From positions 1 through 21,560 of the forward strand of contig JAGLOH010000003.1 in assembly GCA_023139025.1 (NCBI GenBank): DNA of 21,560 nucleotides, written 5' to 3'. Made by a program: the position numbers and the translations under genes. The notes below the pieces were generated by a model. That model made no database searches. It saw only the letters and a list, made by a program, of their open reading frames with translations, and was not told the origin of the DNA. The stretch comes from Candidatus Heimdallarchaeota archaeon. Its GTDB lineage: Archaea > Asgardarchaeota > Heimdallarchaeia > Heimdallarchaeales > Heimdallarchaeaceae. Positions 3,796-21,554 of the stretch are shown here, piece by piece; the first letter of the stretch is position 1, and each line of letters begins with the position of its first letter.

Positions 3796-4968
3796 ATGAA
3801 TTCTGAAATAGAAGATATCGCTTATTTTGAAACACCTCGGAATCCTTTGCCATTGAATTATATTGCTAAGGGTGTTGAGGGAGTAGAAACTATTATTGCT
3901 GCAATAAATCCTCGAGCTACTGAAGAAGTTATCAGTGGAATATTAAGAGCTGCAAAACAATCAAAATCTGTAGTTATATTTGAACTAGCTTTAAGTGAAA
4001 TGTCACTCAGTGGTGGATACACTGGTTATACTCCTGAGAAATTTGCTCAACGCTGTAAATCTGCCGCAGAAAAAGAGAAATGGTTTGCCTACTCATTACA
4101 TGCTGATCATTTAACCTTAAAGAAAGGTACTGATGAAGAAACAGCTAATTTAATGAAAGAAATCAAAGCTCGAGTTGAAGCAGGATTTACTGGTTACGCC
4201 ATTGATACATCTTTTCTCTTTAACAGAGATGAAGATACAGTAAATGGTCAATTGAGTGATATTTTATCAAAAGGCCTTGTATTATTTGAGTTCCTAAAAG
4301 AACTGATGGGTGAAAGACCATATGGGCTTGAAGGAGAAGTTGGGGAAATCGGAATTACAGAGTTTACAACAGTTGAAGAAGCTGTTCACTATGTTTCATC
4401 TTTAATTAAGAATGACGTCATAATAGATTATCTAGCAATAGCAAATGGCTCCACACATGGTGTGAGTGTCGATACTGAAGGTATAGTCGTTCCACAGCTA
4501 GGGATTAATGTTCAGAGAACTGTTGAGATAGTAAATGAATTCAAGAAACAGGGAATAAGAACAAGAATAGCCCAGCATGGAATCACAGGCACCCCAGTCG
4601 AGGTAATAGCCTCAACTTTTCCACATGGAATTATAACAAAAGGGAATATAGGTACTTTCTGGCAAAGACTAGTACAAGATATTCTCGAAGAACGTGAACC
4701 TGAACTATTAACCAAAATACGTACTTGGGTGTTAGATAAATATGGGAAACCTGATGTAGACGAGCATAAAACATTCGCAAAGAATTCTAAATATGCTTGG
4801 AAAGAATTCTTTGAAGAAGTTGAGAATATTAGTGAGGTTACCAAACAAGCAATAATTGTGAAAGCTGAATCAGATATGAATGATTTTATCAAAGCCTTGA
4901 AAATGGAAAATACTGCAACTCTTTGCCTTAAATATATGTTAGATAATTTTCTAACAAATACATACTAG
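3796..4968 (+). CDS. Class II (metal-dependent) ketose-bisphosphate aldolase superfamily protein, GatZ/KbaZ-like
   Basis: By-eye alignment to GatY/FbaA-type motifs: LHADH (cf HLDH), AIDTS (cf MIDGS), LEGEVGEIG (cf VEAELGxLGG), IANGSTHG (cf AIGTAHG), AQHGITG (cf LHGASG). SGGYTGYTPEKF resembles the GGYTGMTPADF signature of GatZ/KbaZ. Confidence 0.6.
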   Translation: MNSEIEDIAYFETPRNPLPLNYIAKGVEGVETIIAAINPRATEEVISGILRAAKQSKSVVIFELALSEMSLSGGYTGYTPEKFAQRCKSAAEKEKWFAYSLHADHLTLKKGTDEETANLMKEIKARVEAGFTGYAIDTSFLFNRDEDTVNGQLSDILSKGLVLFEFLKELMGERPYGLEGEVGEIGITEFTTVEEAVHYVSSLIKNDVIIDYLAIANGSTHGVSVDTEGIVVPQLGINVQRTVEIVNEFKKQGIRTRIAQHGITGTPVEVIASTFPHGIITKGNIGTFWQRLVQDILEEREPELLTKIRTWVLDKYGKPDVDEHKTFAKNSKYAWKEFFEEVENISEVTKQAIIVKAESDMNDFIKALKMENTATLCLKYMLDNFLTNTY

Positions 4969-4979
4969 GATCTGAAAAA

Positions 4980-5897
4980 ATGTCTATAATAAAATATCAT
5001 ACACTGGAAGCATATCTTGAGGAAATTCAACCTGAATCTCTAAGAGAAATACTAAGAGAGATTATCAATATAAGTTTGGATGTACCAAAACAGATTCTAA
5101 CATTTCTTCTAGGAGAAGATGATTATTCTGGTATCATTAATGTGTCTGGAGATGAACAGCTAAGCCTAGATGTTGCCACACAAGAACTATTTATGCAAAG
5201 AATTCCCAATAATCTTTACTCTCTCTTATTAGGTGAAGAAACAGATGAAAATAATATAATGGAAGGAACAGGTGAATTTATTATTTTAGGTGATTTTATT
5301 GATGGTTCTTCTATTATTAGAACACGAAGTCCAGGAGCAATTGTTAATGTAATTGATCAAGAGGGATATACTATTGCTGCTTTGACAGTAAGTTACACAT
5401 TATTCTTGCGATTTGATTTAGCTACAGATCTGGGGTTCATTCAATTTATTTATGACGGAGAATCGTTTCGAATAGTAAGAGATACTCTAGATATTAGCCC
5501 TAGTAAAAATCCAGTGTTCGGGCTTGGTGGGAAGTATAATGACCATTCAGCAAAGCAGAAACTTTTCGTTGACGCATTAGATATTAAAGGAAAGAACAGA
5601 TATGGTGGCTGTATGGTCCAAGACATGAATAATGTTTTTGAAAAAACAGGTGTTTTTGGTTATTTCGCACCTAAACTTAGGTTCTGTTATGAAATCCTTC
5701 CTTATCTTTATATTCTGTCTAAAGTTAATGGAGAAGGATTCTACATAACTGCCGATGGACACGAAATTAAGTATAAGGATATAAAACCCTTAGACGTAAA
5801 CAAACTTACTTCGATGCACTATCTGCACCAAAGAACTGGTTTTGTTGGCGGTTCTAAAGATTTAATCAAATTATGGCATAAAATAGAAGATTTGTGA
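4980..5897 (+). CDS. Class I fructose-1,6-bisphosphatase-like sugar bisphosphatase
   Basis: By-eye alignment to eukaryotic/bacterial FBPase I: NVSGDEQLSLDV (cf NVTGDQVKKLDV), LGEETDE (cf VSEED), GDFIDGSS (cf FDPLDGSS), RYGGCMVQDMNNVF (cf RYVGSMVADVHRTL), KLRFCYEILPYLYI (cf KLRLLYECNPMAYV), HQRTGFVGGSKDLI (cf HQRAPVILGSPEDV). An 11-nt gap to the upstream aldolase-like gene suggests co-transcription. Confidence 0.7.
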   Translation: MSIIKYHTLEAYLEEIQPESLREILREIINISLDVPKQILTFLLGEDDYSGIINVSGDEQLSLDVATQELFMQRIPNNLYSLLLGEETDENNIMEGTGEFIILGDFIDGSSIIRTRSPGAIVNVIDQEGYTIAALTVSYTLFLRFDLATDLGFIQFIYDGESFRIVRDTLDISPSKNPVFGLGGKYNDHSAKQKLFVDALDIKGKNRYGGCMVQDMNNVFEKTGVFGYFAPKLRFCYEILPYLYILSKVNGEGFYITADGHEIKYKDIKPLDVNKLTSMHYLHQRTGFVGGSKDLIKLWHKIEDL

Positions 5898-5917
5898 ATA
5901 TTTTCCAACTCTTCTCC

Positions 5918-5926
5918 TTTTATTTT
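5918..5926 (+). terminator. Oligo-T tract downstream of the FBPase-like gene (possible archaeal intrinsic termination signal)
   Basis: ccTTTTATTTTctg lies about 20 nt after the stop at 5897. Archaeal RNAP terminates at oligo-T. No experimental support. Confidence 0.3.
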
Positions 5927-6010
5927 CTGTTGAAACTATTGAGTAAAACTTTTAATTAAGTAATTATAATATGTATTAGCGACCCGTATTATTTTGCTTA
6001 GGTGATTTAT

Positions 6011-7108
6011 TTGGTCAAAACAACTATAAGTTTACTCAAAGCTGATATAGGATCATGTCCTGGTCATGTAACTGTTTATGAGCCTTTAATGGTTAGAGCT
6101 GAAGAACTGATGGAAAAAGCTAAGGATGAAAATGTCATTCTTGATTTCGTTGTGTTCAATGCTGGCGATGATACTGAACTCCTTTTATCACATTCTAAGG
6201 GAGTTGACAATGAAGCGATACACAAGCTTGCTTGGGATACTTTTATGACACTTGGAAAGGAAGCTAGAGAGATAGGACTCTATGGTGCTGGACAAGATCT
6301 GTTGAAAGATACTTTCACAGGAAACATAAAGGGAATGGGTCCTGGATGTGCTGAATTTGAATTTGAGGAACGTCCAGCAGAGCCTTTACTTGTTTTTGCG
6401 ATGGATAAAACAGAACCAGGGGCATTTAATTATCCTATTTTTCAAATGTTTGCTAATCATTTCAATACAGCTGGTTTGATTATAGATCCAAAACTGCATG
6501 AAGGGTTTACTTTTTCTGTTATGGATGTCTATAAGAACAAAATTGTTGATTTAAGCTGCCCAGAACAGATGTATGATCTTCTTGCGTTAATTGGTGCTCC
6601 AGGAAAATATGTTGTTAAGTACGTTTATAGCAAAACTCCAGATCTTGGAATAGCAGCAGCTATTTCAACAGATAAATTATCCCTTATAGCCGGTAAGTAT
6701 GTAGGAAAAGATGATCCTGTTGCAGTGATTAGGAGTCAAAGTGGTTTTCCAGCTGTAGGAGAGATAGTTGAGGCTTTTACTTTGGGTCATTTGGTTTCAG
6801 GTTGGATGCGAGGTTCCCATCGCGGACCACTTATGCCTGTTTCACTTGAATATAGTCAATGTGTCCGATTTGATGGTCCCCCTAGAGTTGTTGCACTAGG
6901 TTTTCAATTGAAAAACGGCATATTCAAAGGAGGTGTAGATTTATTCGATGATCCATCTTTTGATTCTACACGAACAAGAGTCAATGAAATTGCTGAATAT
7001 ATCCGTAGGCATGGACCTTTCGAACCTGGTCGTCTTCCTTTGAGTGAAATGGAATATACAACATTACCCGGTGTGCTTAAGAAATTGGAGGATAAATTCC
7101 ACGATTAG
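6011..7108 (+). CDS. fbp: Bifunctional fructose-1,6-bisphosphate aldolase/phosphatase (class V FBPase, FBPA/P)
   Basis: (M)VKTTISLLKADIGSCPGH matches the characteristic N-terminus MKxTxSxIKADxGS..GH of this archaeal-type family, and length (~365 aa) fits. I prefer TTG 6011, preceded by AGGTGAT (6000..6006, SD-like), over the listed GTG 6002, which lies inside that SD. Confidence 0.9.
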   Translation: MVKTTISLLKADIGSCPGHVTVYEPLMVRAEELMEKAKDENVILDFVVFNAGDDTELLLSHSKGVDNEAIHKLAWDTFMTLGKEAREIGLYGAGQDLLKDTFTGNIKGMGPGCAEFEFEERPAEPLLVFAMDKTEPGAFNYPIFQMFANHFNTAGLIIDPKLHEGFTFSVMDVYKNKIVDLSCPEQMYDLLALIGAPGKYVVKYVYSKTPDLGIAAAISTDKLSLIAGKYVGKDDPVAVIRSQSGFPAVGEIVEAFTLGHLVSGWMRGSHRGPLMPVSLEYSQCVRFDGPPRVVALGFQLKNGIFKGGVDLFDDPSFDSTRTRVNEIAEYIRRHGPFEPGRLPLSEMEYTTLPGVLKKLEDKFHD

Positions 7109-11720: not shown

Positions 11721-12071
11721 CTATCCACTTATTCTTATGGATAAGATACCTCTTTTATCTTTAATTACTGACACTGCTTCATTTGGTGCTACTACAGTAA
11801 ATCCTTTGTTCTTGGTTCCTTTACCAAAAAGTTTTGCCCATTTAAAGTCTTCTCCGCTCTCGAATGAAAACATCTTGATACCTATGAAGTTTCCGTAATC
11901 AATTTTACTCATAGTTCTTTCAATAAGATTAAGCTCTTCACTGTGAGAGAGTCCATCTTCGAGAACCAATATGCTGTTCCTCATTACTTTGGATAAGATG
12001 TAACTGATTTTCTCTTCAGATGACAGATCATCAGTCTCAGAAAAAGGTATAAAATCTACTCTGTACTTCAT
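11721..12071 (-). CDS. DUF2073-family archaeal protein (partner of Era-like GTPase)
   Basis: Small protein directly downstream of, and coupled to, the GTPase gene, the arrangement I recall for archaeal DUF2073. ATG 12071 is preceded by AAGGTGA, which includes the GTPase stop codon. The listed GTG 12080 is an alternative. Family call is from memory and context, not from a strong motif. Confidence 0.55.
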   Translation of the reverse strand: MKYRVDFIPFSETDDLSSEEKISYILSKVMRNSILVLEDGLSHSEELNLIERTMSKIDYGNFIGIKMFSFESGEDFKWAKLFGKGTKNKGFTVVAPNEAVSVIKDKRGILSIRISG

Positions 12072-12076
12072 TCTCT

Positions 12077-12691
12077 TCACCTTACCTTCCTAGCCAATTC
12101 GGCTATTTTATCATATAATTGTTCTATACCATAACCCTGTAGCGCAGATACGGGGATTACATGATACTCGCTGAACACATCTTTAACTTCTCGAATGTCC
12201 ACATCAGGTAAATCAATCTTATTTGGAACTAGTATGAATGGCTTCTTTTGGTGCTCCAAATTACCTATAATTGTAAAGTTTACTTGATCAAACGGTGATT
12301 TTGCTGCATCTATAATTACTAGAGCTACATCTACATTTTCAAGGAACTTTATTGCTTCCACTATTCCTCTAGTTGCTTCCTTGGCTCTTTGCATTGCTTC
12401 TCCAGCTGTAAGTCCATGTTTCATGAACTCCTTTGGATTGACTGAGGATGCTATACCAGGCATATCGATTAATGTAAGATCCAAGGTAGTTCCTTTAGAA
12501 GAGAAGTTAACCTTCTCAAGCTTTTGAATTGTTCTTGTTTCGTGTGGAATTTCGCTTACAATCCCAACTTCTTGGTCAGCCCAATCCACACCAATTTTGT
12601 TTGCGAGAGTGGTCTTACCAGCATTTACTTCACCGTAGAACCCCAAATTAATTGATTTTGGCTTTGATTTTAGCCATAATCTCCATGACAA
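12077..12691 (-). CDS. Era-like small GTP-binding protein (archaeal GTPase partnered with DUF2073)
   Basis: G1 GEVNAGKT, G2-region PHETRT, G3 DMPG, G4 NKID, G5 SAL. TTG start at 12691 is preceded by AGGTGA with a 5-nt spacer. Confidence 0.85.
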   Translation of the reverse strand: MSWRLWLKSKPKSINLGFYGEVNAGKTTLANKIGVDWADQEVGIVSEIPHETRTIQKLEKVNFSSKGTTLDLTLIDMPGIASSVNPKEFMKHGLTAGEAMQRAKEATRGIVEAIKFLENVDVALVIIDAAKSPFDQVNFTIIGNLEHQKKPFILVPNKIDLPDVDIREVKDVFSEYHVIPVSALQGYGIEQLYDKIAELARKVR

Positions 12692-13986: not shown

Positions 13987-15132
13987 TCATAAACATACGA
14001 TATCTTTTGGTGTGTTTGAAAGTCTTATTACTCCCTCTTTTATCACAATACAATCATCTTCTAGACGTACGCCAAATTCACCAGCAAAGTATAACCCTGG
14101 TTCTACAGTAATTACTGAATTCTCTAGTAAGTTTTGAGCTGGTCTCTCTGGATAGGACTTTCTAATGCCTACACCGATATCATGAGTCTCAATACCAATT
14201 GGATGTCCTGTAGAGTGAATGTATAACTTTTCATGGTCATAACCAAATTCTTCAAATTTGTCTCTTACAGCTTGTTCAACGATATCTGAAGGAATTCCTG
14301 CTTTGATTTTAGTATAAGCCGCTTCCTTTGCTTCATGAACAGCTTCATAAGCTCTAAGAACTTCCTCGTTCGGATTGCTACCTATCCAGTATGTATGCGT
14401 AATATCAGAATTGGACATATCATAAGCAACTCCATAATCAATTAGAAGAACTTGATTTTCTTTGATTTTACCAGTTCCTGCTTTATGATGAGGTATAGCA
14501 GCATTGGGCCCTGAAGCTATTATAGGTTCAAAGGCTACTCCTCCTCTTTTATTACACTCAAATTCAATTATTGCTGCTAATTCCTTTTCTATCATGCCAG
14601 GTTTAATTAATGGTTCAACAACATCTTCCATCAACTCTTCTGCAAGTTTAGCTGAAATTTTATGATTTTCAATTTCTTTCTTGGTTTTGACAGCTCTTAC
14701 ATCATAGATAATCTCATTAGCTGAAATATAATTCAGATTTTTATTCTGATTAGTTAGAGCTTTGAAAGCCCCACTAGTTAAAATATCGTAATTTAGTTTC
14801 GTAAACACTTCTTTCTCTTCAACAAAATTAAGTGCAATTGTTGAGTTATCTGAGATATCATTGAATAGTTTACTTACTAATTCTGTAAGTTCATTCCCTT
14901 GCTTGTAAGCTTTAATATCATAGGTTTTTTCATCCACAAGCATTTCTTCCATTCTTGATGTGATAACAGAGGGTTTTCCTGTTTTTGGAATAAGAGTTAA
15001 AGTAGCTGATGAAATCCATTTTTCATGTAAATATTTTTGATGAATATCATGAGAATGATGACAGAAAATTATCCATCCATCAACATTATGTTTATCTAAA
15101 ATCGCTTGAATTCTTTCTACTTTTTCATTCAA
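13987..15132 (-). CDS. M24-family metallopeptidase (Xaa-Pro aminopeptidase/dipeptidase, creatinase-N + pita-bread fold)
   Basis: Metal ligand context: PHHKAG, LLIDYGVAYDMSNSDITHT, HSTGHPIGIETHD, TVEPGLY, VRLEDD. TTG start 15132 overlaps the cofC stop by 8 nt. Confidence 0.85.
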   Translation of the reverse strand: MNEKVERIQAILDKHNVDGWIIFCHHSHDIHQKYLHEKWISSATLTLIPKTGKPSVITSRMEEMLVDEKTYDIKAYKQGNELTELVSKLFNDISDNSTIALNFVEEKEVFTKLNYDILTSGAFKALTNQNKNLNYISANEIIYDVRAVKTKKEIENHKISAKLAEELMEDVVEPLIKPGMIEKELAAIIEFECNKRGGVAFEPIIASGPNAAIPHHKAGTGKIKENQVLLIDYGVAYDMSNSDITHTYWIGSNPNEEVLRAYEAVHEAKEAAYTKIKAGIPSDIVEQAVRDKFEEFGYDHEKLYIHSTGHPIGIETHDIGVGIRKSYPERPAQNLLENSVITVEPGLYFAGEFGVRLEDDCIVIKEGVIRLSNTPKDIVCL

Positions 15133-15745
15133 AATCTACACATTCCTTAATTATTTGTTTTATATTTTCTGGAATAGAATTATTTTCCATTATTTCTAAC
15201 AAATCCTTAAATTTGTCTATATCTCTGTAAATGTCCTTACTTTCTAAAATCTCATAAGATATGGCTTCTTTTTCAAAGACATCTCTAAATCTTAAAGCTG
15301 AATTCTTTCCAAAGACCAATGGAAAAGAGTTATTCTTATTGAAAGTTAATATGCTTGTTCCATTATCAGGTGTTGGACCTAGCAATATTTTTTTCTCGAT
15401 TTTGTGTTTGTAAAGAATTTCCTTAATTTCTTTAGATTTAATCAAAGGTAAATCGGCCATAATTATTGTGATTATATCTTCTTTTATCTCTTTGAAAGCA
15501 TTAGTTAGTGATTCATTTAACTCATTTCCCTTATCTGACAGCAAAGTAAATTTTCCTGAAAAACTAAGATTATTTTTCTTTGTTAATATGTATAAGTTAA
15601 CATCTGTTTCGATCATAGATACTTCATTTATAAGATTCTGAGTCATATGATAGAGCAGTTTTCCAACAGAAGTTTCATTCAGATCAGACCTTAATCTGCT
15701 CTTATCACTCGCTGTTCCTCTATAAGGAATTATTATTGCTTCCAT
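15125..15745 (-). CDS. cofC: 2-phospho-L-lactate (or PEP) guanylyltransferase CofC, F420 biosynthesis
   Basis: MEAIIIPYRGTASDKSRL matches the CofC N-terminal signature (xIPxKxxxxAKSRL). IIMADLPLI and GPTPDNGTSIL match the MobA-like nucleotidyltransferase core. cofD lies two genes upstream. Confidence 0.8.
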   Translation of the reverse strand: MEAIIIPYRGTASDKSRLRSDLNETSVGKLLYHMTQNLINEVSMIETDVNLYILTKKNNLSFSGKFTLLSDKGNELNESLTNAFKEIKEDIITIIMADLPLIKSKEIKEILYKHKIEKKILLGPTPDNGTSILTFNKNNSFPLVFGKNSALRFRDVFEKEAISYEILESKDIYRDIDKFKDLLEIMENNSIPENIKQIIKECVDFE

Positions 15746-16538
15746 GGTTTTTCTGTCCGGTATAATCTCTAATTAATCTTTGAATAAACTTTGGATCTCG
15801 AATCAATGGTCTAGCAACAGATACCGCTTTTGCTCCTGCTTCAAGCATTGTCTTAATGTCGCTTATAGTTTGAACAGAGTTATTTCCGATAATTGGTATA
15901 TCAGTTGAATTAACGAGGTTATGGATTATTTTAATATTTGCTCTATTGTGCCCTGGTAGCATAGCATCAGAATGAATGAAACTAATTGAAAATTCATCTA
16001 AAATTCTTACAAATTTTTGATACTCATTAACTAAATATCCTCGAATTTTTATTCCTAAAGGAAATGTAGGAAGTATTGCTCGTATATTATTAAGTAAGAG
16101 TTCCAAACTTTCTAGGTTAATAAGTAAACTTTGTCCCCCGTTGGTGTTGATAATTTCTTCTTGACGACAATGAGCATTTATTTCTATAAAATCAACAAAT
16201 TCAGTAAATTTCTTCAACCACATTTTAGTTAGATTATCAATTCTAGAAAATCTTATGTTAACATTTATGGATTGATGTTTGTAAAGTTTCACAAGATCTA
16301 GATTCTTTATGCACCACAGTCTAGCATCCTTCTGTTTTGTTGGAAGAACAAACTCCCTTCTCCCTCTTTCAATCATTTTAATTGTTGCTTTATGAGATTC
16401 ATAATCTATGGAAAATCCCCCCAAAGTTACCATACTAGCACCATATCTCAGAATTTCTTGGCAAAAATTTCTATTTGAAATACCAGCTAAGGCAGATTGA
16501 ACAATTGGTGGTCTAAATTTAAAACCAAAATCTATCAT
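15720..16538 (-). CDS. Dus/NifR3-related, DHODH-like flavin TIM-barrel protein (archaeal family, function unassigned)
   Basis: PPIVQSALAGISNRNFC (cf LAPMAGVTDxPFR), EINAHCRQEEI..GGQSLL (cf DINxGCPxxKV..GxGSALL), LGIKIRG (cf VKIR), IPIIGNNSV (cf ANGGI), AKAVSVARPLI (cf GVMIGRGAL). The start is 4 nt after the cofD stop and the end overlaps cofC by 26 nt. Confidence 0.65.
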   Translation of the reverse strand: MIDFGFKFRPPIVQSALAGISNRNFCQEILRYGASMVTLGGFSIDYESHKATIKMIERGRREFVLPTKQKDARLWCIKNLDLVKLYKHQSINVNIRFSRIDNLTKMWLKKFTEFVDFIEINAHCRQEEIINTNGGQSLLINLESLELLLNNIRAILPTFPLGIKIRGYLVNEYQKFVRILDEFSISFIHSDAMLPGHNRANIKIIHNLVNSTDIPIIGNNSVQTISDIKTMLEAGAKAVSVARPLIRDPKFIQRLIRDYTGQKNHGSNNNSL

Positions 16539-16542
16539 CGGA

Positions 16543-17469
16543 TTATCTCCTATTTAGAATGAAAGAGGAAAGCTTCTTGGGGATAGTTTCATCACTAAAG
16601 AGAATGTTTTGTGTAAGAACTTCTAAACCTGTTTCTTTTTCAATTTCCTCAATATAATTCTTGTCTGTTTCATGAATTATTATAGTGCTACATATGTCCT
16701 TATACAGCTTTGCCACACCTACAGGAGATATCTCAAAACCTTTAGTTTTCATCAACTTACCTGTCGGTCCACTAACAGGTGCTTCACCAATAATTGGACT
16801 TATAGATATACATCTGCTTTTGTTTTCTTCAAGCTTTTTTCTAATGGGTTTAATGTCAATAATAGGGCCAATACTGGTGATTGGGTTACTAGGACCAATT
16901 ATTATTAATTCTGAAACATCCAATTCATTTAGAGCCAAGTTTGGAACTATTGCTTTTTCAAGATCTTTAACATAAATATCCTTAATTTCGATTTCTCCTT
17001 TGTTTTTCACCCAAAATTCTTGGAAGTGAATATTTCTATCATCCTCAGTAATAATACGCGTTTCAATATGAGTTTCTGAACTTGGAAAAATCTTTGCTCC
17101 AATGCCTAGTTTCTCTCTCAAATTATTGATTATTACAGATTGATTTACTCCTTTTTGCATTTCATTTGTCCGAAAAACTTGCATCCCTAGGTCTTTGTCT
17201 CCTAACTGGAACCAAGTGTTTACCCCATACCTGTTTAGGAAGTCTAGAGTATTGTAAGTTTCATTTAGTACACCCCAGTATTTTTCTGTATCTAATAGAT
17301 TACTAAAGAGATAAAGAATTGTATCAATATCTGGAGAAACATAGTAACCATACACCCAGAAATTGTCTGCAGAATTGGCAATTATAGATATCTGTTCTTC
17401 TGGAATATTACTTCTAAAACCTTGAATTAGCTTTGGGGTTCCTGTTCCTCCAGATAGGAAAGTTATCAT
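16543..17469 (-). CDS. cofD: 2-phospho-L-lactate transferase CofD (LPPG:FO transferase), F420 biosynthesis
   Basis: MITFLSGGTGTPKLIQG is the CofD/YvcK N-terminal signature. IIIGPSNPITSIGPI is the conserved C-terminal motif. GAGGGT SD-like sequence upstream of ATG 17469. Confidence 0.85.
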   Translation of the reverse strand: MITFLSGGTGTPKLIQGFRSNIPEEQISIIANSADNFWVYGYYVSPDIDTILYLFSNLLDTEKYWGVLNETYNTLDFLNRYGVNTWFQLGDKDLGMQVFRTNEMQKGVNQSVIINNLREKLGIGAKIFPSSETHIETRIITEDDRNIHFQEFWVKNKGEIEIKDIYVKDLEKAIVPNLALNELDVSELIIIGPSNPITSIGPIIDIKPIRKKLEENKSRCISISPIIGEAPVSGPTGKLMKTKGFEISPVGVAKLYKDICSTIIIHETDKNYIEEIEKETGLEVLTQNILFSDETIPKKLSSFILNRR

Positions 17470-17502: not shown

Positions 17503-18414
17503 TTATTTAGCTGATTTTTTTGAGGTTTTTGCTTTAGATTTTGTAGCTTTTTTACTTGGTGTTTTCTTTGGTTTTGCGGCTGTCTTACTTGGTGTTTTCT
17601 TTGGTTTTGCGGCTGTCTTACTTGGTGCTGTTTTTGGTTTTGCGGTTGTCTTACTTGGTGCTGCTTTTGGTTTTGCGGTTGTCTTACTTGGTGCTGCTTT
17701 TGGTTTTGCGGTTGTCTTACTTGGTGCTGCTATAGTTTTATCTTCAACTGGTTTTTCAGGTGTTTCTTTAGGCTTTTTTGGAGGGGTTTTTCTTGTTGTT
17801 TTCTTTTTAATAGTTCCTGTTTCTACTAAACGAAGTCTCGATGTTGACTTTATAACGACTCTATAATAAGATCCATTTTCTCCCATATCTGGATTTCGAA
17901 CGATTTTGATAACATCACCAGGTTTTGCTTGAATAGCTTTCACAGCTGCATCACTTTCTAGGATTTTAGGTATTTGATGTTTTTCAATTTGGTATCTCTC
18001 TAAGAAGTACTTTATTTCCGGTGATTTAAGCATAACATGTTGACGAACCATTGCATGATCAAAGATGTTAAACAGTGGATTGTTACTACTTATAATTTCA
18101 ATACCCAGTTTAATTGACTCTTTCTTTGCATAATGAGTTAAAGGTGATTCTGCAATAAGGAGGGCTTCACCAAGCTTTTCTTCCTCTTGTAGTTTTCCTA
18201 AAAGTCTAATTAATTTTACTCCAATTTGAGGATTTTTTGGAAATCGTGCAATTGCTGTTATCTTTTCTTTTTTTTCAGAAATTTTATCAGCATAAATGTC
18301 TAGGAAATCGTCATCTTCTTTGGTATTTTTAATTTGAAATCCTCTAAATTCAAGAATTTCTTTAACACCATCCATTATCCTCTTTTCCTTAGCCTTTTGT
18401 TCTTTAGAAGACAA
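17503..18414 (-). CDS. rpoH: RNA polymerase subunit Rpo5/RpoH, full-length Rpb5-like (N-terminal Rpb5 domain + H domain) with a Lys/Pro/Ala/Thr-rich repeat tail
   Basis: C-domain: NIFDHAMVRQHVMLKSPEIKYFLERYQIEKHQIPKILESDAAVKAIQAKPGDVIKIVRNP...YYRVVI (cf human [60 protein letters not shown]..YRLV). N-domain: RFPKNPQIGVKLIRLLGKLQEEEKLGEALLIAESPLTHYAKKE (cf [43 protein letters not shown]). TTG start 18414 has GAGGT 7 nt upstream; ATG 18375 is an alternative. Confidence 0.8.
   Translation of the reverse strand: MSSKEQKAKEKRIMDGVKEILEFRGFQIKNTKEDDDFLDIYADKISEKKEKITAIARFPKNPQIGVKLIRLLGKLQEEEKLGEALLIAESPLTHYAKKESIKLGIEIISSNNPLFNIFDHAMVRQHVMLKSPEIKYFLERYQIEKHQIPKILESDAAVKAIQAKPGDVIKIVRNPDMGENGSYYRVVIKSTSRLRLVETGTIKKKTTRKTPPKKPKETPEKPVEDKTIAAPSKTTAKPKAAPSKTTAKPKAAPSKTTAKPKTAPSKTAAKPKKTPSKTAAKPKKTPSKKATKSKAKTSKKSAK
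17549..17731 (-). repeat. 33-bp tandem repeat, ~5.5 copies, in frame within the rpoH-like tail (11-aa unit APSKTTAKPKA)
   Basis: The anchor TTACTTGGTG recurs at plus-strand 17552, 17585, 17618, 17651, 17684 and 17717, an exact 33-nt period. The three central copies are almost identical. Confidence 0.9.
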
Positions 18415-18447
18415 ATAAGTTACCTCTGCCCCATTAATAATCAGTTA

Positions 18448-18455
18448 ATTTAAAA
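18448..18455 (-). promoter_or_regulatory. TATA-like element upstream of the rpoH-like gene
   Basis: The minus strand reads ATTTTAAATT about 35-40 nt upstream of TTG 18414, inside the 70-nt gap after the Zn-ribbon gene. Confidence 0.3.
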
Positions 18456-18484
18456 TCTTTTGACAAGTGAGAGGTTTTTAAAAG

Positions 18485-18841
18485 TTATTTTTCTTCCTCT
18501 TCTGTTTGAAATTTGATATAGTAAGAACCATCTTTATTCCTGCTTACTATTGGTTTATTATCACTACTATCTGAAAGCAATTTTTCAATATCTACTTCAA
18601 AAACTCCATCACTTGTAAGTCTGATCTCTTCAACACCCTCTTTTATATCTGTTTGGTGGATCTCTTTTTCTACAATAAGTTCAAGTTCTTCTTCCTTTTT
18701 CTGATCTGAAGACTTTTCTCTATAAGTTTTGAATTTGAAGGATCCACAGAAAGGGCATCCATTAAGCAGGATTTGACTATTCAACTCAAGTTTCTTATCA
18801 CACAGTGCGCACAGTGTTATTTTATTAGATGGTTTTGACAT
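18485..18841 (-). CDS. Zn-ribbon protein of the archaeal DUF2072/COG3364 type
   Basis: LCALCDKKLELNSQILLNGCPFCGSFKF (cf xCxxCGxxFxDGSxExLxGCPxCGGxKF). The C-terminal EEIRLTSDGVFEVDIEKLL...KDGSYYIKF resembles the family's conserved tail as I recall it. I prefer ATG 18841 (M13); the listed start 18877 would overlap the upstream gene. Confidence 0.6.
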   Translation of the reverse strand: MSKPSNKITLCALCDKKLELNSQILLNGCPFCGSFKFKTYREKSSDQKKEEELELIVEKEIHQTDIKEGVEEIRLTSDGVFEVDIEKLLSDSSDNKPIVSRNKDGSYYIKFQTEEEEK

Positions 18842-18869
18842 ATAATCACTTGACTCCAGATTGGTTTTT

Positions 18870-19730
18870 CTATTCAATTTTTATACTTGAATTATATAAG
18901 AAAGGACCTTTATGATTACATTTTGGACATCCTTTGTTTTCTAGTTCATCAATGGAATTGAATTCACCCTCAGATCCTACATTGAAGCTTTCTCCACATA
19001 TTGTTTTGCACTTATATAGTTGTAAATGACTATTGCTTTCTCTATAATACATTGGCCCATAGTAATGATTTGCTATGGTTTCTTTAGAATTTTGCTTTAC
19101 TTTAATTATGTATAAGTCTGAGACTGTTTTGTTCAGAGGAGTTTTGTACTCATAGCTGTTGAAATCAGTTTTCTTTTCTTCTATTTCCAAATTCATTGTT
19201 TTAATTAGTTCTTCCAGAATGTCTTCTTTTTCACTTTCAATATCAAAAGATAGAAAGATTTTTGATGATGATTCCTTGTTGGCACATTGCACAGCTCTTG
19301 TTAAACCAACCTCTAATCCCTCCTTTGTCATAGGAGGTTCAACAAAAATATAGTCAAATTGATTTTTTAGAATAAGTATCATTCGAACCCGGATATCATG
19401 ATTTACATATCGTATGGTTCTAATCTTTTGTTTAACTTTCATATTAAAAACAATTTCAGGAATTCTTTTGTCTATATCTAGGACTGCTAAATCCTTTGGT
19501 TTTGAAAGAATACCTAATGGTAAAGAAGAAAGATCCATATCCCCTAGAAAAATAATTCTCTTTCCATTATAATCATCAGGATGTTCTAAGAGGACTCTTT
19601 CAATACTAGATGTCTTTGAAACATAATATTGATCATAATCACTATTTGGAATTCCACGTAGCTCTTGTAGTTCAAAATAAGCTTTGTCAATTCTTTCAAA
19701 AAGTTCTTCCTCAGTAGGAATTGTTTTCAT
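18870..19730 (-). CDS. DUF43 / BpsA-like class I methyltransferase-fold (aminopropyltransferase-like) protein with C-terminal Zn ribbon
   Basis: YDQYYVSKTSSIERV, GKRIIFLGDMDLSSLPLG, VLDIDKRIPEIV and FDYIFVEPPMTKEGLEVGLTRA follow the DUF43 order (QxxxTxET..R, GDDDLxS, DIDxR, FxTDPPxTxxG). The C-terminus has CKTICGE...CPKCNHKG. I prefer ATG 19730 over the adjacent TTG 19733. Confidence 0.55.
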   Translation of the reverse strand: MKTIPTEEELFERIDKAYFELQELRGIPNSDYDQYYVSKTSSIERVLLEHPDDYNGKRIIFLGDMDLSSLPLGILSKPKDLAVLDIDKRIPEIVFNMKVKQKIRTIRYVNHDIRVRMILILKNQFDYIFVEPPMTKEGLEVGLTRAVQCANKESSSKIFLSFDIESEKEDILEELIKTMNLEIEEKKTDFNSYEYKTPLNKTVSDLYIIKVKQNSKETIANHYYGPMYYRESNSHLQLYKCKTICGESFNVGSEGEFNSIDELENKGCPKCNHKGPFLYNSSIKIE

Positions 19731-19775: not shown

Positions 19776-21554
19776 TTAGGAAAGAAAAGTAAGTTGTTTG
19801 AGAACGTTGAATAACTCATCAATAGGCAGTTTTTGTAATTTTTCATTATCTCTTGTTTTTCTTTCTAGCTCTTTTAGTAAAATACTATATTCATAAGCTG
19901 ATTTAGCTAGTTTTGCAAAGGTTGAATCAAATTGTGCAACAGATTGTAAATGATCACTTGCATCTTTTGCTGCCTTTGCTCCATCGTTAAAGTGAGAGGC
20001 AGCTTTGTAATTTTCCTTATTAGTATCTGCACCAATTCCAAAGATTGCTTTCTTTGTTGCTTCTAAGAAATCGGTTAAAGCAAGAGATAATATCTTCTTA
20101 ATTTCAATTGCATTCCAGTTGATATTTGAATCCTCTAAATCAAACATTTTTTTATGATTCAATAGTTCTGAACAGTTTTCAGCAATTCGTTTGTTTATTA
20201 TATCAAATAGAGCAAAATGATTGAAGTTGTGATTTATAATTGTAAAATAATTTTCCTTTATAGAATCTTCTGCTGATAGTGAGTATCTATATCCCTTAGC
20301 AATTTTATCTATTACAGTATTTAAAAACAGATACTGTCTGGATAGTTCAAATAAACGTAATTCTACGTCCTGCCCTAGAATGAATGTTTGACTATACCTG
20401 TGTTCTACCCATTCCTTATTTATATTTGATTCACTGCTCAATTGAGATATTTCTAGTGCTTTTGTTGAATAATAATGAGCTTTAGCATGATATATAATAT
20501 CTAAAACTTCATTTTTTTCTTTTTCAACGAGATTCTGTTCTAAATACACAGAGTTAGCCAAATACTCAAGACATTCAATATCTTTTACAATGTAAACTTT
20601 CTTTTCTGTTTTAGGAAGGAAATAAGCCGATATCTTTATTGTTTCTATATTTTCTAGTAAAGGTTGTATATCTTCAGATTTTATTTTTGTATCTGCTTTT
20701 TCTATTTCTATCAATTGAGTAGAGATATCGTTGATTGTGTATTCTAATCTCTCAATAAAACGAACTAAGTTTTGTTCTGCTCTTACCATTGCATCTTTGA
20801 AGGGTATATTTTCAAGTAAAGCAATTTTTAACTCTTGAACAAAGTTTAGGTAAACAAATGGGAGACTACTTACATAATTGATATTTACCTTTAAACCTGG
20901 TTTATTTACTATTTCTTCTATTTGTTCTACGATGCTCTGGATTTCTTCTTTCTTCTCATCAGCAATTATATTGTACAGCATTGAAGTTTTAGCAGCAAGC
21001 TCTGCAATTCCATGAAAGAAACCATGAATTATTTCTTCTTTTTTGATAGTTTCTTTCAATTTCACAGTTCTTTCGTTCGTTTCCACATTGGAATCTAAGG
21101 TTTTCAAAGCCTCTTCCTCTAGTCCTAGAACGAGATTCAGATATTCAACACTTGCAATGAAACTATCACTTTTAGCTGCTTCGAAACTCAATCTGAGATA
21201 ATGGTCAATAAGCTCTTTATTTCTTTGAGCTTGATTTAAAGAGATATGACTTATTTCAATTTGATTTCCTTTTAATTCTGGATCTTCAGGTATTTGTTTA
21301 TAATAATCTAGTGCTACCTCAAGATGACTTAGGCTTCTTTCAAAAGCAAAATGTGTAGCTATTGAATCTTTCCACCACCAATCTTCTCCCACTCTTTTTA
21401 GAAATTGTGCAGTGAAGGTAACATCAAATTCTGCCATTATTAGTTCATAAGCACCCTTTTCCTCGATCAATTTTTCCTTGCTATATCCATTTGGTGATTC
21501 TTCTAAAAGTCGTATAATTTGTTTTTTTTGGTTAAGTAATAGAAAGGTCAACAT
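19776..21554 (-). CDS. Hypothetical 592-aa all-alpha protein, no family recognised. The N-terminus may extend beyond the window.
   Basis: Long uninterrupted ORF with coding-like composition and helix-favouring, heptad-like segments throughout. The N-terminal KQIIRLLEESPNGYSKEKLIEEKG is reminiscent of a winged-helix segment. There is no in-frame stop between ATG 21554 and the window edge. Confidence 0.6.
   Translation of the reverse strand: MLTFLLLNQKKQIIRLLEESPNGYSKEKLIEEKGAYELIMAEFDVTFTAQFLKRVGEDWWWKDSIATHFAFERSLSHLEVALDYYKQIPEDPELKGNQIEISHISLNQAQRNKELIDHYLRLSFEAAKSDSFIASVEYLNLVLGLEEEALKTLDSNVETNERTVKLKETIKKEEIIHGFFHGIAELAAKTSMLYNIIADEKKEEIQSIVEQIEEIVNKPGLKVNINYVSSLPFVYLNFVQELKIALLENIPFKDAMVRAEQNLVRFIERLEYTINDISTQLIEIEKADTKIKSEDIQPLLENIETIKISAYFLPKTEKKVYIVKDIECLEYLANSVYLEQNLVEKEKNEVLDIIYHAKAHYYSTKALEISQLSSESNINKEWVEHRYSQTFILGQDVELRLFELSRQYLFLNTVIDKIAKGYRYSLSAEDSIKENYFTIINHNFNHFALFDIINKRIAENCSELLNHKKMFDLEDSNINWNAIEIKKILSLALTDFLEATKKAIFGIGADTNKENYKAASHFNDGAKAAKDASDHLQSVAQFDSTFAKLAKSAYEYSILLKELERKTRDNEKLQKLPIDELFNVLKQLTFLS

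Follow-up and report, generated by a model that had tools for sequence, protein, structure and literature searches.

The window analysed here, a stretch of 21,560 nucleotides (nt) from a Candidatus Heimdallarchaeota archaeon (GenBank assembly GCA_023139025.1, contig JAGLOH010000003.1, positions 1 to 21,560), carries on its minus strand a gene that, with a probability we put at roughly 0.8, encodes the archaeon's RNA polymerase subunit Rpo5 (subunit H) as an extended protein in three parts: a homologue of the eukaryotic Rpb5 'jaw' module at the N-terminus, the canonical RpoH/Rpb5_C globe and a long basic tail. Classical archaeal Rpo5 measures about 75-85 amino acids (aa) (8cro_H, 4qiw_H, 2waq_H), and eukaryotic Rpb5, or RPABC1, is a subunit shared by RNA polymerases (Pol) I, II and III (PDB 1dzf and many polymerase structures). 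The open reading frame (ORF) lies on the minus strand exactly where a preliminary description, made from the sequence alone, had placed it, and is composed as follows:

17503..18414, minus strand: complete gene of the three-part Rpo5/H-Rpb5-like protein, 303 aa plus stop, full-length product of ~34 kDa, TTG start (from the ORF listing)
18082..18414, minus strand: N-terminal module, aa 1-111, a Mrr-like PD-(D/E)XK fold, inactivated, and a homologue of the eukaryotic Rpb5 'jaw' module
17854..18072, minus strand: C-terminal globe, aa 115-187, canonical RpoH/Rpb5_C domain (Pfam PF01191)
18037..18057, minus strand: HAMVRQH, a clade variant (Pro to Arg) of the near-universal HxLVPxH motif (from sequence comparison)
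17506..17844, minus strand: C-terminal tail, aa 191-303 (113 residues), of low complexity and rich in Lys, Pro, Thr and Ala
17552..17731: tandem DNA repeat with a 33-nt period, 5.5 copies and 96% matches, encoding the 11-aa unit APSKTTAKPKA (Tandem Repeats Finder)

The N-terminal module was tested alone, so that the C-terminal domain could not carry the result, with a profile built from 17 N-domains (aa 1-111). Against 177,635 PDB sequences the top 11 matches of this profile are all RPB5 (best E = 2.3e-7; Arabidopsis NRPB5A aligned over positions 4-97), with no nuclease below E = 10, and among 1.84 billion representative proteins only 35 match at E ≤ 1e-3, which by inspection and Pfam comprise 7 sequences or fragments of the close family, 15 divergent forms from archaea, 11 Rpb5 proteins of eukaryotic type and 2 true Mrr nucleases, both of the latter near the threshold. 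Profile-profile alignment with hhalign scores the archaeal module at 88.7 against eukaryotic Rpb5_N (98.6%, E = 1e-15) and at 62.3 against Mrr nucleases (97%), with eukaryotic Rpb5_N against Mrr at 44.1; the Mrr set consists of two sequences only, the best Mrr matches, so that the comparison if anything favours Mrr. By the order of these three sequence scores, the archaeal module sits between Mrr and Rpb5_N and closer to Rpb5_N. A phmmer comparison further aligns query residues 56-186 with residues 74-208 of human RPB5 at E = 2.5e-15. The preliminary description had aligned RFPKNPQIGVK...THYAKKE with the human protein by eye, a pairing now recovered residue for residue by phmmer, the N-only profile and hhalign, and had set RIMDGVKEILEFRGFQI beside KIRKTIMQLCHDRGYLV, where hhalign agrees; its broader claim, of a subunit H with an N-module like the Rpb5 jaw, is supported by both profile searches, the profile-profile scores and the predicted fold. 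Its term 'eukaryote-type' holds only in part: the homology stands, but the type does not, the module being rather eukaryote-like, more similar to Mrr and devoid of an insertion of about 15-20 residues.

The predicted fold agrees with these searches. An AlphaFold2 model of the N-module alone (predicted local distance difference test, pLDDT, 91; predicted template-modelling score, pTM, 0.81) has the topology α-β-β-β-α-β-α-β of the PD-(D/E)XK fold, and in the comparison with Rpb5 structures that the preliminary description had proposed, Foldseek places it best on Rpb5 chains of the PDB, with query-normalised template-modelling scores (TMq) of 0.70-0.75 at ~3 Å over ~135 columns, as compared with 0.50-0.57 for EndoMS, AF1548 and NucS. 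Among viral models giant-virus (Nucleocytoviricota) RPB5, likewise a two-domain protein, reaches 0.74-0.75 (Marseillevirus and Tunisvirus) and phage restriction endonucleases ~0.60, and a model of both domains of the window protein aligns over ~200 columns with 36 Rpb5 chains, ahead of any short archaeal H chain.

When the archaeal long forms are aligned collinearly with Rpb5 of human and yeast and with two Mrr nucleases, R24 of an xRG[YF] motif at the end of helix α1 is invariant in the archaeal forms (alignments A2 and A3) and occupies the position of the Rpb5 DRGY motif, where Mrr proteins have LGY or LDY; in yeast, the DRGY substitution R26E is lethal (PMC1802627). On the third strand, most archaeal forms have (A/V)R(F/I)P and eukaryotes (F/Y)FP, as opposed to the catalytic QxK of Mrr (AIARFPK in the window protein, LIQVKK in Mrr). 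Since neither the alignments nor a motif census reveal a (D/E/Q)xK catalytic motif on strand 3 of the module, let alone a conserved one, nuclease activity is unlikely; the more specific statement that the catalytic Lys was replaced by Pro in archaea and eukaryotes was withdrawn, MAFFT and hhalign placing the Mrr QxK differently. The junction from the last strand (IE..) to HxLVPxH spans 16 ungapped residues in the window protein, the other long forms aligned and human Rpb5 alike. Across 24 orthologues the N-module shows no insertion or deletion in 110 residues, its mean identity is 0.79 as compared with 0.80 for the C-globe, and its ratio of nonsynonymous to synonymous substitution (dN/dS), 0.05-0.20, is as low as or below that of the globe: the module is under purifying selection.

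The C-terminal domain matches Pfam RNA_pol_Rpb5_C (PF01191) at residues 115-187 over the full 73-position model, with E = 1.1e-21 and 76.8 bits against a cut-off of 23.5, which bears out the clear H/Rpb5 C-domain of the preliminary description. It aligns with the P. furiosus Rpo5 sequence at E = 2.1e-15, and in Foldseek its AlphaFold model superposes on the corresponding chain 8cro_H with a target-normalised score (TMt) of 0.85, a root-mean-square deviation (rmsd) of 2.0 Å and 49% identity; over 8cro_H, 4qiw_H and 7oqy_H the values are 0.82-0.86 and 2.0-2.3 Å. The Arg within HxLVPxH is found only in the closest relatives of the window protein (P0001-P0010, L001-L005), all other long forms keeping Pro.

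Several results weigh against the assignment made above and are gathered here. The search with Pfam RNA_pol_Rpb5_N that the preliminary description had proposed formally fails: the model (PF03871, 27-bit cut-off) does not list the protein even at E ≤ 10, and in the 14 of 17 relatives where it is listed (best E = 1.8e-4) it stays under the cut-off. Mrr_cat and NA-iREase1 outscore it, reaching 1e-9 in relatives; for Mrr_cat (PF04471) alone the window protein gives E = 3.9e-5, with 21.3 bits at full length and 24.2 for the isolated N-domain (cut-off 21), and relatives go down to E = 7e-9. The eukaryotic insertion of ~15-20 residues after the first strands is a gap in all archaeal forms, whose module measures ~111 residues as compared with ~140 in eukaryotes. 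On the structural side, the N-only Foldseek E-values are marginal (about 6e-4) and alike for Rpb5 and EndoMS, and the predicted inter-domain orientation is unlike that of Rpb5 (TM ~0.45) in a model whose pTM is only 0.55. As for the C-terminal part, NCBIfam NF007129, the subunit-H equivalog, scores 81 bits, below its cut-off of 83, and the globe has no special affinity to eukaryotic Rpb5_C, with 58-76 bits as compared with ~87 for typical short archaeal RpoH. The idea that the globe is specially eukaryote-like was rejected on these lower scores, which argue against a recent transfer from eukaryotes and lend no support to sisterhood either.

In our view the Pfam result reflects the models and does not speak against homology. 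The Rpb5_N model covers human residues 4-94 only and ends before the last β-α-β, where the likeness between archaea and eukaryotes is greatest, and to this we attribute the miss; eukaryotic Rpb5, too, weakly matches Mrr_cat (7e-4 for P0072), which fits the published classing of Rpb5_N as a PD-(D/E)XK fold (PMC3424549). The same result is nonetheless the main support for an unlikely alternative, in which a Mrr-type domain joined RpoH in Heimdallarchaeia independently of the event that gave rise to Rpb5, the two sharing a Mrr-like source. All 17 N-domains score better on Mrr_cat and NA-iREase1 than on Rpb5_N, the window family keeps the motif-II Asp (D39), the lineage clearly adds and duplicates such modules, with three in tandem in P0063 and P0215, and the lack of eukaryotic affinity in the C-globe points the same way. 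On the other hand, the N-only profile ranks Rpb5 over Mrr both in the PDB and among the 1.84 billion proteins, even though Mrr is presumably far commoner, hhalign concurs by a score of 88.7 to 62.3, the module has in common with Rpb5 the RG[YF] Arg and the FP strand as well as the order of the domains and the length of the junction, and the weak Rpb5_N score is accounted for by the partial coverage of the module in Pfam.

The extended subunit is not confined to the window. With one genome taken per GTDB species, the motif [LFY]THY[AT][KR]KE[AS] returned at least 31 loci in 31 assemblies, with one long-form locus per matched genome; 25 are labelled Heimdallarchaeota and 6 carry other or unspecific labels, the labelling being inconsistent within one series of metagenome-assembled genomes (MAGs). 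The count is an underestimate, the complete genome CP070695.1, which reads YTHYAKREA, having been missed by the motif. Divergent two-domain forms of 177-248 aa, 29-40% identical, are labelled Heimdallarchaeota, Hodarchaeales and occasionally Thor- or Promethearchaeota. In all 36 loci fetched, with Heimdall and Hodarchaeales labels, the N and C parts lie in a single uninterrupted frame, so the two-domain architecture is conserved across both lineages, and in none of them is there a second Rpb5_C within 10 kb or a motif of rpoB or rpoA.

A C-domain profile search also returned many proteins of ~80-100 aa, annotated 'DNA-directed RNA polymerase subunit H', from Heimdall and Hodarchaeales MAGs. 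All four of these 'short' RpoH proteins that were checked in the DNA are clipped from intact long ORFs that include the N-module, with ~385-520 uncalled nt before the short call and only the last 80-100 codons annotated:

L032, 9680-10303: intact long ORF, 207 aa
L033, 9701-10243: intact long ORF, 180 aa, on the complete 4.94-Mb chromosome CP070695.1
L034, 9701-10264: intact long ORF, 187 aa
L036, 4718-5308: intact long ORF, 196 aa

The N-termini of other 'short' proteins (MITSKDPRF..., MFPVSFPFF..., MDVELLHRRF...) match the final part of the long-form N-module, and all Heimdall- or Hodarchaeales-labelled 'short' RpoH among the best 120 C-domain matches are of the long type. Their reading as paralogues or as lineages devoid of the module was rejected on the four clipped ORFs, and the clipping looks systematic, to the expected family length of ~80 aa. 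Mislabelling takes other forms as well: P0049, a fragment of the N-module, is annotated 'restriction endonuclease', and P0001, which is 100% identical to the 303-aa protein and comes from a Ca. Heimdallarchaeota MAG, is deposited at NCBI as a 'hypothetical protein', probably because its NF007129 score falls just under the cut-off.

These data provide circumstantial evidence on whether the genome might keep a normal short rpoH, the long protein being a paralogue that reuses the Rpb5_C fold as a chromatin-associated or DNA-binding factor. This would agree with the absence of rpoB and rpoA next to the gene in 36 of 36 loci, with the H1-like tail, which suggests a chromatin-type role, with the equivalog score just below its cut-off and with the Pro-to-Arg change in the HxLVPxH motif of the window clade. 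We consider it quite unlikely all the same: each of the 31 motif-matched genomes has a single long-form locus, the 'short' RpoH among the best 120 C-domain matches prove to be of the long type (four of four tested being clipped, one of them in a complete 4.94-Mb genome), and the C-globe is under purifying selection and shares 49% identity with P. furiosus Rpo5 when the structures are aligned. The location away from rpoB and rpoA, correctly given in the preliminary description, is moreover a known general trait of the Heimdall group, the rpoH-rpoB-rpoA/str cluster being dispersed in complete Heimdallarchaeum genomes (PMC10833476).

Some members of the family depart from the common architecture. 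P0063 (481 aa) and P0215 (498 aa), both from Ca. Heimdallarchaeota, have three tandem N-like PD-(D/E)XK modules (~aa 38-107, 149-246 and 255-367), then Rpb5_C (370-442), and end in a charged tail, in effect a 'triple-jaw' subunit H. P0057 is an ORF of the N-module only, which leaves the family sequence at the domain junction (a frameshift or an assembly error), and P0051 joins the first ~87 residues of the N-module to MgtE_N/FliG_M-like sequence and is probably chimeric. Three further proteins, P0068, P0077 and P0216 (JGI label 'RPABC1'; one on a 444-kb contig), are Rpb5 sequences of ~180-187 aa that pass Pfam Rpb5_N and have little of the insertion; they look like short eukaryote- or virus-type Rpb5 and could help bridge the archaeal and eukaryotic forms.

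That the gene was acquired from a giant virus or a eukaryote, or entered the assembly as a contaminant, is very improbable. RPB5 proteins of giant viruses and eukaryotes are indeed the best structural matches of the N-module, and lateral transfer between proto-eukaryotes and Heimdallarchaeia has been proposed (PMC12395588). The gene nevertheless stands among archaeal neighbours (cofD, cofC, OapB/OapC, BpsA), as the preliminary description had argued when it judged contamination unlikely, and the order BpsA_C - rpo5 - cofD - Dus is kept in a lineage only 37% identical. The C-globe resembles archaeal RpoH more than it does eukaryotic Rpb5_C, and the module, devoid of the eukaryotic insertion and more Mrr-like than any eukaryotic Rpb5, fits an ancestral better than a derived state. 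Viral RPB5 sequences, for their part, are of eukaryotic type, and the gene context of the window protein is archaeal.

The third part of the protein, the tail of 113 residues, is an addition to the preliminary description, which did not mention it. It consists to 87% of K, P, T, A and S and to 33% of K and R, with a net charge of about +31 and a pI of about 11. K/R-rich tails with differing repeat units recur in L001-L022, and forms of ~180-200 aa occur that have no tail; it is thus the composition of the tail that is conserved rather than its sequence, which points to a disordered, charge-driven function. By analogy, the most plausible role would be non-specific nucleic-acid binding near the downstream-DNA channel. 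No H1/HC2-like profile matches the window protein above threshold, though its composition fits, and for two relatives (P0031, P0035) precomputed PF07382 hits are on record. In some sub-lineages (P0043-P0046, P0058; loci L025 and L031) the tail is acidic instead of basic, with 30-43% D/E. An antisense ORF of 59 aa at 17556-17735 on the plus strand, with LVLRLSYLV repeats, was dismissed as a gene, being the reverse reading of the 33-nt tandem repeat of the tail.

In every solved polymerase, archaeal or eukaryotic, the Rpb5_C globe binds the largest subunit at the lower jaw. On this model the globe of the window protein (aa ~112-190) would anchor it on Rpo1, and the N-module would, by analogy with Pol I, II and III, form an extension of the lower jaw that lines the channel for downstream DNA, with the disordered basic tail of ~113 residues, a lineage-specific element, probably adding non-specific contacts to downstream DNA or chromatin. 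In yeast, structures place the Rpb5 N-module at the lower jaw, where it cross-links ~15 nt ahead of the bubble (PMC1802627). A chimera of the yeast N-part and the Pyrococcus C-part does not complement an rpb5 deletion in yeast (PMC3906176). A possible functional analogue of the tail is Rpo13 of the Sulfolobales polymerase, which adjoins the N-terminal part of Rpo5 and contacts double-stranded DNA (PMC13257274, PMC3479171), but which is a separate small subunit with no sequence relation to the tail; the resemblance to histone H1 tails is likewise proposed by analogy only. Should the protein be incorporated as proposed, it would lead one to expect in archaeal transcription an extended lower jaw, additional downstream-DNA contacts and a contribution of the basic tail.

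Set beside the known systems, the protein compares as follows. With eukaryotic Rpb5 it has in common a PD-(D/E)XK N-module followed by the Rpb5_C globe, collinear over both, together with the DRGY Arg, the FP strand, the VG(V/I)K and T..A(K/R) blocks, the junction length and the loss of the nuclease motif; unlike eukaryotic Rpb5, it has no insertion of ~15-20 residues, is more Mrr-like, including Asp39, scores below the Pfam Rpb5_N cut-off, bears a basic tail of 113 residues and belongs to a host with a single polymerase. With classical archaeal Rpo5 it shares the C-globe (49% identity, TMt 0.85, rmsd 2 Å for P. furiosus), but it has 111 residues before the globe, where classical subunit H has no N-module, and 113 after it. 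To Mrr_cat (PF04471) and NA-iREase1 (PF22722, an inactive restriction-endonuclease domain) the N-module is linked by fold and detectable sequence similarity, whereas it has no (D/E/Q)xK motif and no restriction-modification context, forms a fusion with a polymerase subunit and scores closer to Rpb5_N in the profile-profile comparison.

As to the origin of the module, we give an even chance to its having arisen in Heimdallarchaeia (including Hodarchaeales) by fusion of an inactivated Mrr-type domain to RpoH, with eukaryotes as its heirs. In that case the jaw module would not be a eukaryotic invention, the last structural feature common to Pol I, II and III that counts as 'typically eukaryotic' would fall away, and the fusion, with its fixed junction, would be a rare genomic change linking eukaryotes specifically to this Asgard group. 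Textbooks and the primary literature regard the N-module of Rpb5 as confined to eukaryotes. The Rpb5 N-module and Rpb8 have been described as two typically eukaryotic features common to the three nuclear polymerases (Zaros et al., PMC1802627), and a 2012 survey of the PD-(D/E)XK fold lists Rpb5_N for 'Eukaryota' only (PMC3424549). Full-text literature searches, incomplete in coverage (the catalogue of Asgard eukaryotic signature proteins by Liu et al. 2021 was not covered), found no account of an Asgard Rpo5/Rpb5 with an N-module; none is contained in the supplementary tables of Eme et al. 2023, and no such module is mentioned in PMC13556214, PMC13545438, PMC12993045 or PMC13257274, which deal with the evolution of archaeal polymerase subunits and Asgard biology. 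That the module has gone unreported is probably due in part to annotation clipping and the sub-threshold Pfam score. The case exposes a systematic annotation error, long ORFs being cut to the classical length of subunit H or labelled 'hypothetical' or 'restriction endonuclease'. An archaeal form lying between Mrr nucleases and Rpb5_N would provide a concrete origin for the jaw module. Rpb8 has since been found in archaea, and an archaeal Rpb5 N-module would close the remaining gap. It would also offer a discrete character in the current dispute over eukaryotes branching within Heimdallarchaeia or beside them.

The gene itself, in a window of ~33% G+C, likely starts at the TTG at 18414. The deposited model of P0001 has 290 aa and begins at Met14, and is probably short by 13 residues; the TTG is preferred because the N-terminal segment SKEQKAKEKRI is conserved among homologues, whose own start codons are M, L or V codons, and because a GAGGT lies upstream. 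Co-transcription with the upstream genes is equally possible as transcription from a promoter of its own. The elements around the start and the adjoining genes are:

18422..18426, minus strand: GAGGT, putative Shine-Dalgarno-like sequence 8-12 nt 5' of the TTG (read from the sequence)
18448..18455, minus strand: TTTTAAAT, candidate TATA-like element in the 70-nt spacer after oapC (read from the sequence)
18475-18483: second A/T-rich candidate promoter element (read from the sequence)
18485-18877, minus strand: OapC-type zinc-ribbon gene, upstream neighbour
16543-17469, minus strand: cofD, downstream neighbour

The gene thus stands between a zinc-ribbon gene and cofD, as first described, and belongs to a co-directional run on the minus strand that comprises a 592-aa ORF, BpsA_C, the OapC zinc ribbon, the subunit H gene, CofD, a Dus-like protein and CofC. 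Directly downstream, cofD, a Dus/DHO_dh-like TIM-barrel gene and cofC follow in the same direction (15125-17469, minus strand), so that genes of the coenzyme F420 biosynthesis type are in conserved linkage with a polymerase subunit gene, as they also are in L027 and L032. An OapB ('origin-associated protein') homologue lies at 11721-12080 on the minus strand, the OapB and OapC homologues flanking the region, and the order BpsA_C - OapC - rpo5 - CofD - Dus-like - CofC - M24 peptidase - GTPase - OapB is kept in L032. The 592-aa ORF (19776-21554, minus strand) has no Pfam match at useful E-values, and L032 has in its position a 759-aa gene without Pfam hits. Farther away, at 3796-7108 on the plus strand, a class-II aldolase-like gene, a classical fructose-1,6-bisphosphatase (FBPase) and an archaeal FBPase_3 of the bifunctional aldolase/phosphatase type adjoin one another, which brings two different types of fructose-1,6-bisphosphatase together in one cluster; the same set is present in L032.

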